IMG/VR virus record: IMGVR_UViG_3300048925_000129
Strand: one strand, 5' to 3'
From: a virus
DNA: 64,000 nt
Below, in pieces: positions 2,541-11,220 of the stretch. The translations under genes and the position numbers were made by a program. The notes under the pieces were generated by a model. It was not told the origin of the DNA. It made no database searches and worked only from the letters and a program-made list of their open reading frames with translations. The first letter of the stretch is position 1; each line of letters starts with the position of its first letter.

Positions 2541-2751
2541 AAGTTTCGGTTGTTATGCAAAGACAACCTGTAGTTTAGCTGGTTTAATCAAGAAAAACCA
2601 ATTACTCATCTCGGAGGTTTAAAAACTTCACTGTTTTAAAGATGGGGAGAGGTCGTGACTACCAAACCTTATTCCATTCTTACTACCTACATACCTCAGG
2701 GCAGTTAAGAGAAAGTGATTTAACGTTACACTTATACACGGCTCTGCATTG

Positions 2752-2823
2752 TCCCGATACTAGGAATCGAACCTAGATTTCAACTTTATGAGAGTTGTGT
2801 AATAGCCACTATACCATATCGGA
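2752..2823 (-). tRNA. tRNA-CAT (Met or Ile2)
   Basis: CAACT-CTCATAA-AGTTG anticodon arm, CTAGG-TTCGATT-CCTAG T arm. Confidence 0.9.
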
Positions 2824-3014
2824 AGTTGAGGGCGTTAAGTTAATCAGACTAATACCCTCTTTTAATTTCTTGCTTCCATTTTTTAGGGAAAAGGAAGCAC
2901 CCTGCAACCAAACCTAAGTTTTTTGAACACAAAAACTCATAAAGTACCTCGTATGCCCAGTGTTATTTAACCTTACACACCTCACTCCAAGGCTGAACTA
3001 TTTCAAGGGATTTG

Positions 3015-3087
3015 TAGCTCCACCAGGACTCGAACCTGGATCTTCAGCTTATGAGACTGACGAGGTAACCTATTTCTCCATGTAGCA
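3015..3087 (-). tRNA. tRNA-CAT, initiator-like
   Basis: TCAGT-CTCATAA-GCTGA arm, mismatched 1:72 pair, fMet-like TGGAG...TCGTC D region. Confidence 0.8.
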
Positions 3088-3094
3088 ATATTAG

Positions 3095-3174
3095 AGCAGA
3101 GTTGTGGAATCGAACCACTAGTCTAGACTACCTTACTCTTCACGACTAAGACCCTGCCTTCGGGTGACTCTGCT
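3095..3174 (-). ncRNA. Atypical tRNA-like element (8-bp acceptor, long variable hairpin, non-canonical anticodon loop)
   Basis: AGCAGAGT/ACTCTGCT, D arm ACCC/GGGT, T-loop TTCGATT, anticodon region CGTGAAG lacks U33. Confidence 0.55.
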
Positions 3175-4042: not shown

Positions 4043-4061
4043 AATATAAAACTTTTGGTTG

Positions 4062-4134
4062 TTCTTTCAACGGGATTCGAACCCGTGACACACAGTTTTA
4101 GAGACTGCTGTTCTAACCACTGAACTATGAAAGA
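4062..4134 (-). tRNA. Amber suppressor tRNA (anticodon CTA)
   Basis: TCTTTCA/TGAAAGA acceptor, GCAGT-CTCTAAA-ACTGT anticodon arm, ACGGG-TTCGAAT-CCCGT T arm. Confidence 0.9.
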
Positions 4135-6982: not shown

Positions 6983-7279
6983 TTAGTTTTTACCATTTCC
7001 CTTTTCTGGAAATTTATGAATTCTAATTGGAAGAAATCCTAATTCTTCACATAAGTTTCTTAAAACTTCTAACTTAGAATCATCTCCTTTTTCTATTTTC
7101 CCATCAAACAAAGCTTCAATTACTTCTCCATCTCCTAAGGAAATAAATCCATTTTGAATATGTCTTTCAGCTAGAAGTGAATATGCTTGAATTTTTGCCT
7201 GAAACTTTACCTGCTCTTTGTTAGCTTCTAATTGAATTCTAATTAGTTCTGCTTGTCTATAAAACTCTTGATCTGTCAT
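6983..7279 (-). CDS. Hypothetical protein (start revised to MTDQEF)
   Basis: Track start at 7309 lies inside the promoter at 7299-7330. Confidence 0.6.
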   Translation of the reverse strand: MTDQEFYRQAELIRIQLEANKEQVKFQAKIQAYSLLAERHIQNGFISLGDGEVIEALFDGKIEKGDDSKLEVLRNLCEELGFLPIRIHKFPEKGNGKN

Positions 7280-7298
7280 TTGTTTAATTATTACTTTG

Positions 7299-7330
7299 CA
7301 AAGATACAAAAAGTTTTCTTAATATGCAAA
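7299..7330 (-). promoter_or_regulatory. Bacteroidota-type promoter for the TROVE operon
   Basis: TTTG-N20-TATCTTTG. Confidence 0.75.
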
Positions 7331-7498
7331 TTTATTTTGTTAAAGTTTTGTTAAAGTTTTTCGATTATAGAGAAGACAATAAAAATTATGTTCTCAACTG
7401 GTATGTTATAAATCCATCTCATAGTATGTAAAATAAAAAATGTTGCTAATATAAGACTTCACATACTAACAACATTCAATCTACCTTCTTGTAGTTTG

Positions 7499-7570
7499 TG
7501 TGATAACGGGACTCGAACCCTGACTACCAATTTCACAGGTTGGCATGCTAACCTTTACATCATTATCACC
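7499..7570 (-). tRNA. tRNA-His(GTG)
   Basis: CCAAC-CTGTGAA-ATTGG arm, T-loop TTCGAGT. Confidence 0.85.
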
Positions 7571-7627
7571 ATATAAAGTATCTTTTATTTAAGGGGTTGA
7601 AAGATACAAAACTATCCCTAATTTTAT

Positions 7628-8020
7628 TTAGTAGTTCACTACTCTTACTGGTTTACCAAGATTTTTCATGAGGTCTATCATATTTTTTGTTCCTCTACTC
7701 TTGCCATCCCAAAAAGCTATAAGTACATCTCCTACTTCGGACATCTCTTCATTCCTAATTGGACCAGCAGCATTCCCATACATTTTCCAGTCGGCTGGCA
7801 TAGGAATAACATTGTGATTACTCTCAGCAGCATAAAGCTCTCCAAGTCCATCTGCTCCAAAGACATTAATACCATCTGATGTGGTAAAAGTCTTGGTTCC
7901 CGTGGAGCATCTTCCTGAAACTATTTCGATGTCTCTATGATTCCTAAGGAAATTATCACATTTTGTTTTAACGAGACGATAATCATTCAGATCTCTGCCT
8001 CCTGCTATTATGACTTTCAT
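7628..8020 (-). CDS. SLOG-family protein (DUF2493/YspA-like)
   Basis: KVIIAGGRD, IVSG, GADGLGE, AAGPIRNEEM, AFWDGKSRGTKNMI. Confidence 0.85.
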   Translation of the reverse strand: MKVIIAGGRDLNDYRLVKTKCDNFLRNHRDIEIVSGRCSTGTKTFTTSDGINVFGADGLGELYAAESNHNVIPMPADWKMYGNAAGPIRNEEMSEVGDVLIAFWDGKSRGTKNMIDLMKNLGKPVRVVNY

Positions 8021-8442
8021 TAGGCTTCAGCAATTGCTTGCTTGATCTCATCAGCTTTATTAATACCTTTACACTCCTTGTTGATCATACCAAATAGTTT
8101 ACCTTCGTGGATGCCTGGATTATCTTCTTTAGTTTGTTTAACCAAAGACACTAATTCAGAATAGGTTAAGGCCTGAGGTAAGTACGACTCAAGAACTTTT
8201 AATTCTGATTCTTCCTTAACAGCAAGATCTATTCTTTTAGAAAGAGTGTAGGCATCAATAGATTGATTCCTTTTCTTAATTTCCCTAGAGATAAGTTTCG
8301 TAACTTCATCTTCAGTTAAATCTCTTCTTAAAGCTATTTTCTCGTTGTCTACTACACTTATTAAAAGTGACAGGGTTGTTTTTGCTACTATATCTTTTGC
8401 CTTTAAAGCTTTTACGTAGTCTTGTCTGATCTTTGATTCCAT
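8020..8442 (-). CDS. YqeY/GatB-domain tRNA-binding protein
   Basis: KALKAKD...EIKKRNQSIDAY..SKRIDLAVKEESELKVLESYLPQ. Confidence 0.85.
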   Translation of the reverse strand: MESKIRQDYVKALKAKDIVAKTTLSLLISVVDNEKIALRRDLTEDEVTKLISREIKKRNQSIDAYTLSKRIDLAVKEESELKVLESYLPQALTYSELVSLVKQTKEDNPGIHEGKLFGMINKECKGINKADEIKQAIAEA

Positions 8443-8469
8443 TTTACTTTTGTTTTAATTATTGATTAG

Positions 8470-8540
8470 TGCAGGTAGGGAGAATCGAACTCCCGACTAA
8501 ACATTGGAAGTGTCCCGTGATACCACTTCACCACACCTGC
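8470..8540 (-). tRNA. tRNA-Gly(TCC); 5' half overlaps the HNH gene 3' end
   Basis: GCAGGTG/TACCTGC acceptor, loop CTTCCAA, GGGAG-TTCGATT-CTCCC T arm. Confidence 0.85.
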
Positions 8541-8958
8541 CTATTCTTTCCTGATAATGTAAGTCCCTATGACAGTTGGAACATAAAACCTCACATTTCT
8601 CTATTTCTTTTAATGCTCTAGATTTAGAACCACTCTTAAACAGAGCTCCAACTTCAGTATCCTTCTCGTCTGGATTAATATGGTGAAAATCTAAGACCCA
8701 CCATCTATCCTCTGGACATCTATTACATTTTAAATTTTTCTTTATTTCGAAAAATTCTTCCATAGAAGTTTGTCTATAAGCTTTAGATTTAGAAATATAT
8801 TTAGCTTTGTTAGCTTCATAATGTTTCTTTCTATATTCTTTCTGACATTCTCTACATTGCCACTGTAGAATTGTTTTTGTTTTCAATTTTTTAGTAGCAA
8901 AAAACTCTTCTGTCTCTGGTAATTCTTTTTTACAAGAACCACATATCTTCGTACACAT
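8497..8958 (-). CDS. HNH homing-type endonuclease with N-terminal Zn finger
   Basis: CGSC...CREC; CNRC...LDFHHINP.EK...EIEKCEVLCSNCHRDLH; start revised to MCTKIC, downstream of promoter 8974-9005. Confidence 0.85.
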   Translation of the reverse strand: MCTKICGSCKKELPETEEFFATKKLKTKTILQWQCRECQKEYRKKHYEANKAKYISKSKAYRQTSMEEFFEIKKNLKCNRCPEDRWWVLDFHHINPDEKDTEVGALFKSGSKSRALKEIEKCEVLCSNCHRDLHYQERIGRCGEVVSRDTSNV

Positions 8959-8973
8959 ATTTATTAATTTATA

Positions 8974-9005
8974 CAAAGATACAAAAAAGGTATCGAACTT
9001 CCAAA
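8974..9005 (-). promoter_or_regulatory. Promoter of the HNH cassette
   Basis: TTTG-N20-TATCTTTG. Confidence 0.7.
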
Positions 9006-9022
9006 CACATAAAATTAATTAT

Positions 9023-9065
9023 TAGGCTTGGAAGGCTAGAGTATTAACCACTATACGATACCTGC
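9023..9065 (-). pseudogene. Orphan 5' half of tRNA-Gly(TCC)
   Basis: GCAGGTA TCGTATAGTGGTTAATAC T CTAGC CTTCCAA GC, then AT-rich sequence with no T arm. Confidence 0.8.
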
Positions 9066-9160
9066 AATTATAATAGACCATCATACTCTCACTAATGTGA
9101 TTCGTGCACCTGATATACCTTGGGTATATAAGTAGATAGTTTTAGGGGCAACTATTATTG

Positions 9161-9234
9161 TCTCCAGTATAGGATTTGAACCTATGACAACTTCCTTATC
9201 AGAGAAGTGCTCTACCAGACTGAGCTAACTGGAG
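9161..9234 (-). tRNA. tRNA-Ile(GAT)
   Basis: CTCCAGT/ACTGGAG acceptor, loop CTGATAA. Confidence 0.9.
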
Positions 9235-9259
9235 TTAAACCAGGTTTCCCTGGTATGTT

Positions 9260-9496
9260 TTATTTTTTATAGTGAATGTAAGATTTCACTCCTTTCATGG
9301 CTGCATCTTCTACAAGCCTCAAAGCTAAAGTTTTCAAACTCAAAATTTCAGAAGCTTCGTCTGGATTTAAATCTGCTGTCACATTATCATTAATGTAGTC
9401 GAAAAGCTCAATAGCTCTTTGTTTAATTCCATCAATTACTCCTTCACCTGAAGGGTTGAAATCACCAATTCTTTTTTGTCCTAAAGTTTTTTCCAT
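9260..9496 (-). CDS. Acb2/Tad1-like helical-hairpin anti-defence sponge candidate
   Basis: TLGQKRI..FNPSG...IDGIKQRAIEL...LALRLVEDAAM.GVK pattern. Confidence 0.55.
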   Translation of the reverse strand: MEKTLGQKRIGDFNPSGEGVIDGIKQRAIELFDYINDNVTADLNPDEASEILSLKTLALRLVEDAAMKGVKSYIHYKK

Positions 9497-10257
9497 TATA
9501 TATCTTTTCTTGTTACAATAAAATCTTCTATTGAGTTATCCTCTTCTAAAATTAGCTTACCAAATCCTGGAGCTATAATAAAATGTGTCCTATCATTTTG
9601 GTCTTCAGCAGGAATAATATCTGAAAAACCTGATTTTTTTGAAATTTCCATTTGGTCTTTAGTAAGTAGATAGATAAGTTCCATTAACTTCAAGTGGTTA
9701 GTTTTAACTTCCATTACTCTTTCTGTCCAAGGAATATGTCTTCCAGTATAATACACAAAGTGAATATGATTCCTTAATGTACCTCTTATATCAGTTTCAT
9801 CTGGATAAGGTTCTGTATTAAATCCATGTGAATGCCACATGTATTCACCTTTATCATTGGTTTCTTTATACTCAACATATAATTTACCCGTTTCACCAGC
9901 ATAGTACCTTTTCAAAACTTCTTCATGTTGTTTAGAAACATCAAATTGTACAGTATCAAATAAGTTTCCAGTAGAAGAATATTCTCCTAATACAAAACCA
10001 ATTCTTATCCATTTATCTGTACTTTGGATATCTTCTTTTGCTAAATAGACATCAGGATCAGTTGTTACTAACACAACTGCTTTAGCATCTTCAGTGACTA
10101 TAAATTGAACACCGTACATGGCATCATCTGTATAAACAGTATTTGGATCACTGAATATTCCTTTGAATATCTCTATTGGAATTCTAGATCCATCAATACC
10201 TAAGTAAATACTTGGGTCTCTTCCTTCTTTTTCTTTGTAAAATCTTTCTCGTATCAT
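9496..10257 (-). CDS. Hypothetical protein
   Basis: 253-aa ORF coupled to both neighbours. Confidence 0.75.
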   Translation of the reverse strand: MIRERFYKEKEGRDPSIYLGIDGSRIPIEIFKGIFSDPNTVYTDDAMYGVQFIVTEDAKAVVLVTTDPDVYLAKEDIQSTDKWIRIGFVLGEYSSTGNLFDTVQFDVSKQHEEVLKRYYAGETGKLYVEYKETNDKGEYMWHSHGFNTEPYPDETDIRGTLRNHIHFVYYTGRHIPWTERVMEVKTNHLKLMELIYLLTKDQMEISKKSGFSDIIPAEDQNDRTHFIIAPGFGKLILEEDNSIEDFIVTRKDI

Positions 10258-10463
10258 TTGTTAAAAATTTCATCTGAAAATAAATCAAGAATCCTATCTG
10301 GTTCTCCCCAATCGTGACCTCCATATTTGTGCACTTTAAACTCTTCAAAAGAGGCTATATTATAACCCTCTTGACCATGAATTACTTTTAGGTAAATAAA
10401 TCTTAATCTATACCACCAGTAAACCCTGAATTTATCATACTCATCTAATTCCTGAAATTTCAT
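10254..10463 (-). CDS. Hypothetical protein
   Basis: 69-aa ORF immediately after promoter-like motif 10468-10499. Confidence 0.6.
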   Translation of the reverse strand: MKFQELDEYDKFRVYWWYRLRFIYLKVIHGQEGYNIASFEEFKVHKYGGHDWGEPDRILDLFSDEIFNK

Positions 10464-10521
10464 TTTACAAATTTAAGAAACTTTTTTGACATGTGCAAGT
10501 TTTTAACAAACTTTAACATTG

Positions 10522-10593
10522 TAGACCTACTAGGATTCGAACCTAGATACCCTGAGTCAAAGTCAGGTGTACTAACCGTTGTACGATAGGTCT
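10522..10593 (-). tRNA. tRNA-Gln(TTG)
   Basis: CCTGA-CTTTGAC-TCAGG arm. Confidence 0.9.
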
Positions 10594-10596
10594 GTT

Positions 10597-10670
10597 TGGA
10601 GCCCAGAACAGGATTCGAACCTGTGTACCTAGTTTTGCAGACTAGTGTCTAACCACTCGACCACCTGGGC
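10597..10670 (-). tRNA. tRNA-Cys(GCA)
   Basis: CTAGT-CTGCAAA-ACTAG arm, U73, encoded CCA. Confidence 0.9.
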
Positions 10671-10676
10671 AGCTTG

Positions 10677-10748
10677 AGCCTCTATCAGGAATCGAACCCG
10701 AATCTCAAGATTACAAATCATGTATAATAGCCGTTATACTACAGAGGC
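10677..10748 (-). tRNA. tRNA-Thr(TGT)
   Basis: GCCTCTG/TAGAGGC acceptor, loop TTTGTAA. Confidence 0.88.
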
Positions 10749-10752
10749 AAAT

Positions 10753-10793
10753 AAAAAATCCCTTGCAAAGTCGGTTGAGGATTCACAAGGGAT
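10753..10793 (-). terminator. Attenuator terminator B, directly upstream of tRNA-Thr
   Basis: ATCCCTTGTGAA/TTTGCAAGGGAT 12-bp stem plus T-tract. Confidence 0.85.
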
Positions 10794-10825
10794 AGAAATT
10801 TATAAAAAATAAATTTGTGTATTGT

Positions 10826-10915
10826 CTATTCATAAATGACATCAGACAAAATCATCCCTGTTGAGTGCCCCTGGCAGCCAATAGTTATCTCGATATGTTG
10901 TCTAGTTGTTGTCAT
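10826..10915 (-). CDS. Leader peptide B (29 aa): MTTTRQHIEITIGCQGHSTGMILSDVIYE*
   Basis: A-rich start context, lies between promoter and terminator; first 17 codons are only M,T,R,Q,H,I,E,G,C. Confidence 0.8.
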   Translation of the reverse strand: MTTTRQHIEITIGCQGHSTGMILSDVIYE

Positions 10916-10935
10916 TGTTTAAATTTTTACTTCTG

Positions 10936-10967
10936 CAAATATACAAAATGTTTTTGACATATGCAAA
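10936..10967 (-). promoter_or_regulatory. Promoter for leader B / tRNA block B
   Basis: TTTG-N20-TATATTTG. Confidence 0.8.
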
Positions 10968-10998
10968 TTTCTAAAAGAAATTATTAGTTAAAGTTTTG

Positions 10999-11220
10999 TT
11001 AAAAATAATAATACCAGTATTCATCGTGGAATAGCTGCATTTCTTGTTTTAAATTAATCTGCTTTTGGTGCTTATACATCCTATTGCCCTCACAAATGTT
11101 GCATCCACCATTATGTTCACAGAATTTAGATGGTCTTGTTCTGCTTCCATCTCTTACTGTTTTTAAGTGGTTAACACCCATCCATCTATGCTGAGATGGT
11201 TTTCTATAAGTTCTACTCAT
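10999..11220 (-). CDS. Small Cys/His-rich hypothetical protein
   Basis: MSRTYRK...CEHNGGCNICEGNR. Confidence 0.7.
   Translation of the reverse strand: MSRTYRKPSQHRWMGVNHLKTVRDGSRTRPSKFCEHNGGCNICEGNRMYKHQKQINLKQEMQLFHDEYWYYYF

Follow-up and report, generated by a model that had tools for sequence, protein, structure and literature searches.

A free-standing HNH endonuclease cassette in a phage tRNA-Gly gene that appears to carry a replacement for the part it displaces

Introduction

In a tRNA gene array of a tailed phage, the 5' part of a tRNA-Gly(TCC) gene stands alone upstream of an HNH endonuclease gene, and the last codons of that endonuclease gene are at the same time the first bases of a second, complete tRNA-Gly(TCC). 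How could such an arrangement arise, and what became of the tRNA gene that occupied the site before? To address these questions, the locus was compared with an HNH-less relative, with contigs from public sequencing runs, and with homologous HNH genes in other phages and in bacterial chromosomes. The stretch of DNA analysed (hereafter the window) comprises 64,000 nucleotides of IMG/VR virus record IMGVR_UViG_3300048925_000129. Genes for terminase, portal and structural proteins mark it as tailed-phage DNA, and ARAGORN finds 22 tRNA genes in it, all on the minus strand, of which a single one is tRNA-Gly.

Results and Discussion

Layout of the tRNA-Gly locus

The features of the locus are listed below from 5' to 3' along the minus strand; L083 denotes the HNH-less relative described in the next section.

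9160..9234, minus strand: tRNA-Ile(GAT), the upstream neighbour of the orphan (ARAGORN; Rfam 68.9 bits)
9159..9066, minus strand: spacer of 94 bases from tRNA-Ile to the orphan
9024..9065, minus strand: the orphan, 42 bases equal to bases 1-42 of the old resident tRNA-Gly(TCC) (42 of 42 identical to the L083 gene)
8959..9023, minus strand: left end of the cassette, 65 non-coding bases with no counterpart in L083 in the alignment
8497..8958, minus strand: HNH endonuclease gene, 153 aa from the first ATG (PHROG 2255)
8469..8540, minus strand: complete tRNA-Gly(TCC) (ARAGORN; Rfam tRNA 63.2 bits)
8495..8540, minus strand: 5' part of the rebuilt gene, foreign and brought in by the cassette; its D stem and anticodon stem differ from those of L083 and the orphan
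8469..8494, minus strand: 3' part of resident origin, from the T arm through the acceptor 3' strand to the discriminator base, identical to L083
8020..8442, minus strand: YqeY-like gene, the downstream flank, outside the cassette (Pfam YqeY, E 2.9e-26)

The HNH reading frame and the tRNA-Gly gene overlap by 44 bases (8540..8497), such that tRNA bases 1-44 are the final HNH codons and the stop codon TAG (8499..8497) falls within the tRNA. Coordinates of the HNH gene are given from its first ATG; the program-made list of open reading frames places an alternative TTG start of the same frame at 8976. The orphan contains the acceptor 5' strand, the D arm, the 5' strand of the anticodon stem, the TCC loop and four bases of the 3' strand, and, taken alone, it is recognised as a tRNA truncated at the 3' end (Rfam model positions 1-41, 17.5 bits). 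The phage derives from root and wastewater metagenomes, and several public runs contain contigs with the identical arrangement. Because the same layout is seen in several runs, an assembly accident or chimera was rejected as its source.

The 65 non-coding bases between the orphan and the HNH gene had been read, from the sequence alone, as a promoter. By eye, they contain a Bacteroidota-type promoter-like pair, with a -33 TTTG (9005..9002), a 20-base gap and a -7 TAtcTTTG (8981..8974), judged against the published Bacteroides consensus (-33 TTTG, -7 TAnnTTTG). The TAnnTTTG motif is also found directly 5' of the HNH start in four homologous loci (L004, L018, L020 and L035). A scan for sigma-70 promoters returned three sites where 4.1 were expected, and hence no enrichment. 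The order first proposed (orphan, promoter, HNH gene, complete tRNA-Gly) is confirmed as to layout, with the orphan at 9065..9024, and its promoter is a match by eye; we refer to the 65-base spacer as a putative, promoter-like region carried by the cassette. This left end also includes a T-loop-like stretch (9002..8989).

Comparison with an HNH-less relative

An exact search of IMG/VR with the first 25 bases of the orphan matched a sole contig, L083. It has no HNH gene at this place and carries one intact tRNA-Gly(TCC) about 100 bases past a tRNA-Ile, which lies 5' of tRNA-Gly as it does in the window. Bases 1-42 of the L083 tRNA-Gly match the orphan at 42 of 42 positions (BLAST against 399 tRNAs, E 3e-19), and its T arm, acceptor 3' strand and discriminator base are identical to window positions 8494..8469; one base of the variable loop differs between the two genes. 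Since the L083 gene equals the orphan plus the 3' part preserved in the window, the window gene is the old gene, interrupted after base 42 by an insertion. Two expectations of the sequence-only reading are borne out here, namely that the HNH gene had inserted into a tRNA gene and that relatives lacking it would carry an intact GCAGGTA...TACCTGC gene.

At the sequence level, this comparison demonstrates both an insertion inside the tRNA-Gly gene and a foreign origin of the 5' part that now completes it. The rebuilt tRNA-Gly is a chimera, in which a foreign 5' two-thirds (8540..about 8495), comprising the acceptor 5' strand, the D arm, the entire anticodon arm and most of the variable loop, is joined to a resident 3' third, with the junction lying somewhere in 8498..8494. 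It should be noted that L083, the nearest relative found, is nonetheless distant (YqeY 64% identical, a neighbouring 253-aa protein 48% identical), so that the state before insertion is a reconstruction and was not seen directly in any near-identical genome. With the 253-aa flank protein as query, the L083 contig alone was matched, at that same 48% identity, and no closer cassette-free relative is thus available.

The acceptor strand of the orphan, GCAGGTA, pairs perfectly with the surviving TACCTGC, while the new strand, GCAGGTG, needs one G:U, at 7:66, exactly as had been pointed out from the sequence alone. In Rfam the rebuilt tRNA-Gly scores 63.2 bits and has no non-standard pairs; the old allele scores 62.1 bits and has two, both in the anticodon stem, where the rebuilt gene has none. 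Judged by these scores and pairs, the rebuilt gene is as tRNA-like as the old allele, whose type is common among phage tRNA arrays (L084-L094). The new and old alleles differ in the anticodon stem and the variable loop, and in the D stem as well.

Origin of the foreign 5' part

The sequence-only reading had proposed that the target was resequenced. This idea is not upheld, and the new 5' part is a natural foreign allele with no redesigned sequence. Its anticodon arm is shared by a tRNA-Gly that stands without an HNH gene on the unrelated phage contig L097, and the same arm, judged from the protein tail, adjoins the 66%-identical HNH protein P0002. An exact-match query of IMG/VR with bases 1-24 of the new part returned nothing. 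The tail of the closest HNH protein, P0001 (84% identical), fits the start of an L007-type tRNA, here too as read from the protein tail only; a further close homologue, P0003, is 69% identical. The tails of P0001 and P0002 indicate that HNH genes exchange their tRNA partners. In crAss001-like phages, the HNH-adjacent tRNA-Gly genes have mixed acceptor stems with one or two G:U pairs (L009-type), and the tRNA-Gly(TCC) of HNH-less L023 is wholly different from these HNH-adjacent genes.

The HNH protein

The protein matches the PHROG 2255 family 'HNH endonuclease' (E 8e-32). At its N-terminus lies a zinc ribbon of the CxxC...CxxC type, from which a long helix leads to an HNH core that holds another pair of CxxC motifs. 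All residues that are invariant among 24-25 homologs are present in it (those of the N-terminal ribbon, D90-F91-H92-H93, C78/C81, C126/C129, N128 and H130), and these include the hallmarks of an HNH nuclease, the catalytic His of the 'HH' pair and a C-terminal metal-binding His, set between two CxxC zinc pairs. Its family matches are to HNH families only, with no GIY-YIG domain. A profile search against PDB sequences gives a weak match to the McrA HNH motif (E 0.008). Pfam returns no HNH family at E up to 0.01 and only a sub-threshold match to CTD5, and Foldseek against the PDB returns no match at E up to 0.001, with Hpy99I, Cap5, the Gme HNH and T5 SciA appearing as weak rows only.

The AF2 model has a mean pLDDT of 90.4, with values below 50 for residues 145-153, the tail encoded by the tRNA. 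Homologs read into their tRNAs in differing frames and end after 2 to 15 unrelated residues. These differing frames of entry, together with the predicted disorder of the tail, indicate that the tRNA-encoded tail is read-through and no functional C-terminus; the HNH gene is a gene without a stop codon of its own. The earlier suggestion that the new 5' half of the tRNA is encoded in the C-terminus of the HNH protein stands with respect to the 44-base overlap, with the refinement that this C-terminus is mere read-through.

Recurrence across the HNH family

The junction between HNH gene and tRNA is not confined to the window. Among the closest homologs in IMG/VR, INPHARED and GTDB, a tRNA on the same strand begins 0-2 codons past the conserved end of the protein. 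The reading frame ends inside, or within a few bases of, a tRNA 5' end in most of the closest IMG/VR loci and in 17 of 22 bacterial loci, and across the family it runs into the 5' ends of tRNAs of more than ten isotypes. The junction is absent from the most remote homologs, which are shorter HNH proteins ranked last in the list. Examples of the tRNAs met at the junction are as follows.

tRNA-Gly(TCC): L003, L004, L007, crAss001 and relatives
tRNA-Thr: L020, L104
tRNA-Arg, four anticodons: L025, L102, L105-L107, L109, L112, L117, L119
tRNA-Glu: L022
tRNA-Cys: L035
tRNA-Pro: L027, L043
tRNA-Trp: L103
tRNA-Lys(CTT), within Nostoc tRNA arrays and with the stop codon inside the tRNA: L113, L114, L118

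Several loci of the family also retain a piece of a split tRNA gene.

L007, 2914-2953: orphan tRNA-Gly 5' piece, ending two bases past the anticodon loop
L025, 2913-2953: orphan tRNA-Arg 5' piece, upstream of the HNH gene
L109, 1352-1391: orphan tRNA-Arg 5' piece, upstream of the HNH gene
L033: tRNA-Asn split, with its 5' part before the open reading frame and its T arm and acceptor 3' strand at the end of the frame; no replacement copy

In loci where the orphan has a readable end, the last tRNA base retained is base 42 in the window, 40 in L109, 40 in L007 and 41 in L033, so that orphan ends cluster at tRNA bases 40-42 across loci and phyla that are independent of one another. A search for an unbroken gene corresponding to the L007 orphan returned only the contig of L007 itself. 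From this recurrence, the HNH family appears to do likewise to the tRNA genes of other phages and of bacterial chromosomes.

Other placements occur in addition. In crAss001, L004 and L020 there is no orphan, and the HNH gene lies cleanly between two whole tRNA genes, from which it follows that insertion inside a tRNA gene is not the sole outcome. Phages of the crAss001-like group are found both with and without the HNH gene between Gly(GCC) and Gly(TCC). Orphan 3' pieces follow the HNH open reading frame in L019 and L023, and mirror cases, in which a whole tRNA stands upstream and an orphan 3' piece downstream (L023, L121 and L132), are not fully explained by a simple insertion model.

Allele series at a chromosomal tRNA-Arg site

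Genomes of Pyrinomonadaceae hold 3-4 copies of the HNH family each, and one syntenic tRNA-Arg(TCG) site is found among them in several states.

G007 and G008: intact old-type gene
G001 (L109): old bases 1-40 at 1352-1391; HNH gene at 1432-1902; complete, different tRNA-Arg(TCG) at 1879-1956; old T arm and acceptor 3' strand at 1966-1990, nine bases past the new tRNA
G002 (L119): layout as in G001
G005: whole old-type tRNA, HNH gene and decayed 3' piece
G004 and G006: no HNH gene; tRNA with the anticodon arm of the cassette-borne gene

This series of allele states is the pattern that would be expected of the successive stages of a homing element. The layout of G001 represents the full form of the cassette, in which the nuclease and a whole spare tRNA are nested in the target gene, and the window holds a variant in which the junction on the right came to lie within the tRNA. 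No statement made here draws on the unpublished genomes G021, G025 and G039.

Indications of recent movement

Contigs of one wastewater run (X8) are 98.3% identical to the window over 8533-9070, from the HNH gene through the orphan, and 99% identical in the tRNA, compared with 91.2% DNA identity in the yqeY flank. In the same run the structure changes immediately beyond both ends of the expanded tRNA gene: the 88-base spacer 9071-9158 is missing, so that the orphan abuts tRNA-Ile, and yqeY is separated from the tRNA by 588 additional bases. Since the two X8 pieces belong to different contig records, their linkage is probable and not proven. In a related contig of run X6, positions 8457-9085 are swapped for 667 other bases. 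No contig joining the old tRNA halves without the cassette was found in four sequencing runs.

Proposed mechanism and alternative explanations

Taken together, we hold with good confidence that a free-standing HNH homing-endonuclease cassette has inserted in the tRNA-Gly(TCC) gene, and that it carried with it a replacement for the part that it displaced. As is characteristic of homing genes, the element is present or absent at one and the same site (in the window versus L083, in Pyrinomonadaceae and in crAss001-like phages), co-conversion is seen in the chimeric tRNA and in the mixed acceptor stems of L009-type phages, and the cassette is more conserved than its flank. The gene does not lie in a self-splicing intron or an intein: there is no Rfam intron in 7000-11000, the open reading frame has its own start, and it is embedded in no host protein frame.

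The cassette consists of the promoter-like region, the HNH gene and foreign tRNA-Gly bases 1 to about 46, and it has landed just after tRNA base 42, in the 3' strand of the anticodon stem. Fusion of the foreign copy to the resident T arm and acceptor 3' strand has restored a whole tRNA-Gly gene, presumably a functional one, and has left resident bases 1-42 upstream as a dead orphan. In the scenario that we propose, spread of the cassette would involve three steps. First, the enzyme would cut cassette-free tRNA alleles near bases 40-46, a site that we infer from the ends of the orphans. Second, the break would be repaired from a cassette-bearing genome, with the orphan serving as the left homology arm and the 3' part of the tRNA as the right one. 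Third, the copied allele would be spared from further cutting, because it differs from the old one around the putative cut site, in the anticodon stem and the variable loop. As the stop codon used by the HNH gene belongs to the tRNA, processing at the tRNA 5' end would strip that stop from the HNH mRNA, and the level of nuclease may in this way stay low, by analogy with the control proposed for T4 segB (see below).

Three other explanations were weighed against this one. The cassette might be kept mainly for the benefit of the phage, with tRNA alleles swapped or multiplied against tRNA-cutting defences and homing only secondary. Amplification of tRNA genes driven by SegB overcomes a defence that cuts the variable loop (PMC13096335), and it is exactly in the anticodon stem and the variable loop that the new and old alleles differ, the old one having two non-standard pairs in the anticodon stem and the new one none. 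We nevertheless regard this explanation as unlikely, given that the single tRNA-Gly gene of the window represents no amplification; moreover, a benefit of this kind is compatible with homing and does not exclude it.

Less likely still, in our estimation, is that the HNH gene is a passive passenger in a spacer and that tRNA-Gly was partially duplicated through ordinary recombination or slippage in a dense array. Phage tRNA arrays are prone to recombination and contain decayed tRNA pieces with no nuclease nearby, and a chimeric tRNA-Gly-like piece without an endonuclease frame is present in L088/L089, from a food metagenome. A passenger would not, however, be expected to be joined to the first base of tRNAs of more than ten isotypes within one protein family, to follow orphans that end at bases 40-42 in independent loci and phyla, to give intact and split alleles at one chromosomal site, or to be more conserved than its flank.

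An intron-like insertion, with the old 5' half and 3' part joined as RNA and the old tRNA made together with or instead of the chimera, is very improbable: the order of old 5' half, open reading frame and 3' part does resemble an ORF-bearing intron, L033 has no replacement copy, and group I introns with homing endonucleases occur in anticodon loops of bacterial tRNA genes (PMC3984707), but no Rfam intron family, Intron_gpI included, matches in 7000-11000 at E up to 1, the 65 non-coding bases between orphan and open reading frame, with none downstream, leave no room for a ribozyme core, and a complete, contiguous tRNA that uses the 3' part is present, for which reasons a group I intron in the tRNA gene was rejected.

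Comparison with known systems

Homing by a replacement-bearing cassette, the explanation that we prefer, has elements in common with several known systems. SegB of phages T4 and T6 is a free-standing homing endonuclease in the tRNA gene cluster of T-even phages, which cuts inside the tRNA genes of phages that lack segB and thereby drives the co-inheritance of neighbouring tRNA genes (PMC2330249; PMC13096335); it acts on tRNA-Tyr against Septu (PMC13096335). The segB frame runs up to the 5' end of tRNA-Arg, the tRNA that follows, where processing would separate the last codon from the stop, and a low level of nuclease through tRNA processing has been proposed for it in T4 (PMC2330249). SegB thus resembles the HNH gene of the window in being a free-standing nuclease gene in a phage tRNA array whose frame meets the 5' end of the next tRNA. 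It differs in being a GIY-YIG enzyme that recognises a T-loop motif, whereas the enzyme of the window is of the HNH type, and no split target, orphan half or chimeric replacement tRNA has been described for it.

HNH enzymes of phage T5 are reportedly encoded among phage tRNA genes, and their control by processing of tRNA precursors is said to have been proposed. By description only, they are like the HNH gene of the window in being HNH-type nucleases among phage tRNA genes; we know of no orphan or replacement layout for them. A parallel in design is offered by synthetic cleave-and-rescue or home-and-rescue drives, which have been engineered with Cas9 in insects. They share the logic of the proposed cassette, linking a nuclease that breaks a needed gene to a cut-resistant replacement; the window element, by contrast, occurs naturally and is guided by protein, and its replacement allele is only putatively resistant.

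In fungal mitochondria, free-standing endonuclease open reading frames create hybrid or partly duplicated atp9, atp6 and cox1 genes (PMC7487136). There, too, a nuclease frame arrives with a foreign gene part, and the outcome is a hybrid gene plus a pseudogene made up of the displaced native part. The fungal examples concern protein-coding genes of organelles, involve GIY-YIG or LAGLIDADG enzymes and usually replace the 3' end, whereas the present family has an HNH enzyme and replaces the 5' part, or the whole, of a tRNA gene in phages and bacteria. One such hybrid, atp6 of Allomyces macrogynus, was reportedly described by Paquin et al. in 1994.

The HNH homing endonuclease gene all8564 and its orthologs lie beside the long tRNA arrays of cyanobacteria and have been proposed to spread them (PMC8421152). 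The likeness to the present family, taken from description only, is that of an HNH gene linked to mobile tRNA arrays; all8564 lies upstream of its array, with no insertion into tRNA genes described (PMC8421152), whereas members of the present family are embedded in Nostoc arrays. Nucleases of tRNA clusters that cut tRNA genes (T4 SegB and reportedly the T5 HNH enzymes), and hybrid-gene cassettes in fungal mitochondria, are accordingly already known. A search of the available literature found no description of a cassette combining a nuclease with a replacement part for tRNA genes.

Implications

Homing endonucleases usually gain a place in conserved genes by hiding in introns or inteins, which are removed by self-splicing; here, in an RNA gene, the element brings a replacement for what it breaks. 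In annotating the window, the orphan (9065..9024) is best labelled a pseudogene fragment, and the HNH gene is best shown with its overlap into tRNA-Gly. More generally, we would like to suggest, tentatively and as a plausible proposal, that the family constitutes a natural 'home-and-rescue' drive on RNA genes: HNH enzymes in several phage groups and bacterial phyla would cut tRNA genes at the boundary of anticodon stem and variable loop, install themselves together with a cut-resistant part or whole tRNA, and so rewrite tRNA sets without an intron, their expression being gated by tRNA 5' processing. If cutting near bases 40-46 is true, it would provide a mechanism by which phages and mobile bacterial tRNA arrays come to have mosaic tRNA sets that turn over fast. 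The same process would explain the stray tRNA halves and the tRNAs with mismatched stems that annotation pipelines report, and it would make the family a compact natural nuclease-plus-rescue drive and a source of nucleases with tRNA-gene specificities.

HNH genes and neighbouring tRNAs in other genomes

The arrangement of homologous HNH genes and their flanking tRNAs was compared across phage and bacterial loci. In Bacteroides phage crAss001, the homolog Gp8 exactly fills the gap between two tRNA-Gly genes, its ATG being preceded by a single base of that gap and its stop codon lying within tRNA-Gly(TCC).

L001 (crAss001) 2592-3141, region of the HNH homolog Gp8, between tRNA-Gly(GCC) and tRNA-Gly(TCC)

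In a relative (L023), tRNA-Gly(GCC) and tRNA-Gly(TCC) are separated by 3 bases, with no HNH gene between them. Two near-identical gut-phage contigs (L005:1938-1990 compared with L006:2925-2999) differ from one another 5' of the HNH gene: one carries a complete tRNA-Trp located 1 base 5' of the HNH ATG, whereas the other retains only bases 1-53 of this tRNA.

Three loci (L121, L132 and L023) have a complete tRNA 5' of the HNH gene, with an orphan T arm and acceptor 3' strand 3' of the gene. These layouts are mirror images, in which the rebuilt tRNA copy lies on the opposite side of the nuclease gene.

Variation and possible relics at the tRNA-Gly site

Related strains in public sequencing runs vary at the tRNA-Gly site of the window. 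In a strain from run X6, the entire tRNA-Gly/HNH/orphan region (window 8457-9085) is replaced by a different segment of 667 bases. Related strains from wastewater run X8 carry 588 additional bases 3' of tRNA-Gly (window 8457-8465) and lack the 88-base spacer at window 9071-9158.

Within the left end of the cassette, a MAFFT alignment paired a short stretch with the T arm of the tRNA-Gly of L083, the nearest relative lacking the HNH gene.

Window 9002..8989, minus strand, stretch resembling a T arm, with GGAAG followed by the loop motif TTCGAT, 20 bases past the orphan tRNA 5' part
L083:1110-1181, old-type tRNA-Gly(TCC); likewise in L084, L092 and L093

The cassette may here preserve what is left of an earlier tRNA 3' piece; alternatively, the stretch may be a chance likeness next to the promoter motif. 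The old-type tRNA-Gly(TCC) itself retains two non-standard anticodon-stem pairs, U:U and A:C, in several unrelated phage contigs, which is unusual for a functional tRNA.

tRNA arrays

HNH family members are also embedded in long tRNA arrays of Nostoc genomes (L113, L114 and L118), where the stop codon falls within tRNA-Lys(CTT). The crAss001 tRNA array contains a DpsA-like gene, a component common to this array and those of cyanobacteria (PMC8421152). The phage tRNA array of the window includes an amber-suppressor-type tRNA.

Window 4061-4134, minus strand, tRNA with anticodon CTA, labelled tRNA-Pyl by ARAGORN

This tRNA may be a sign of TAG recoding in the phage.
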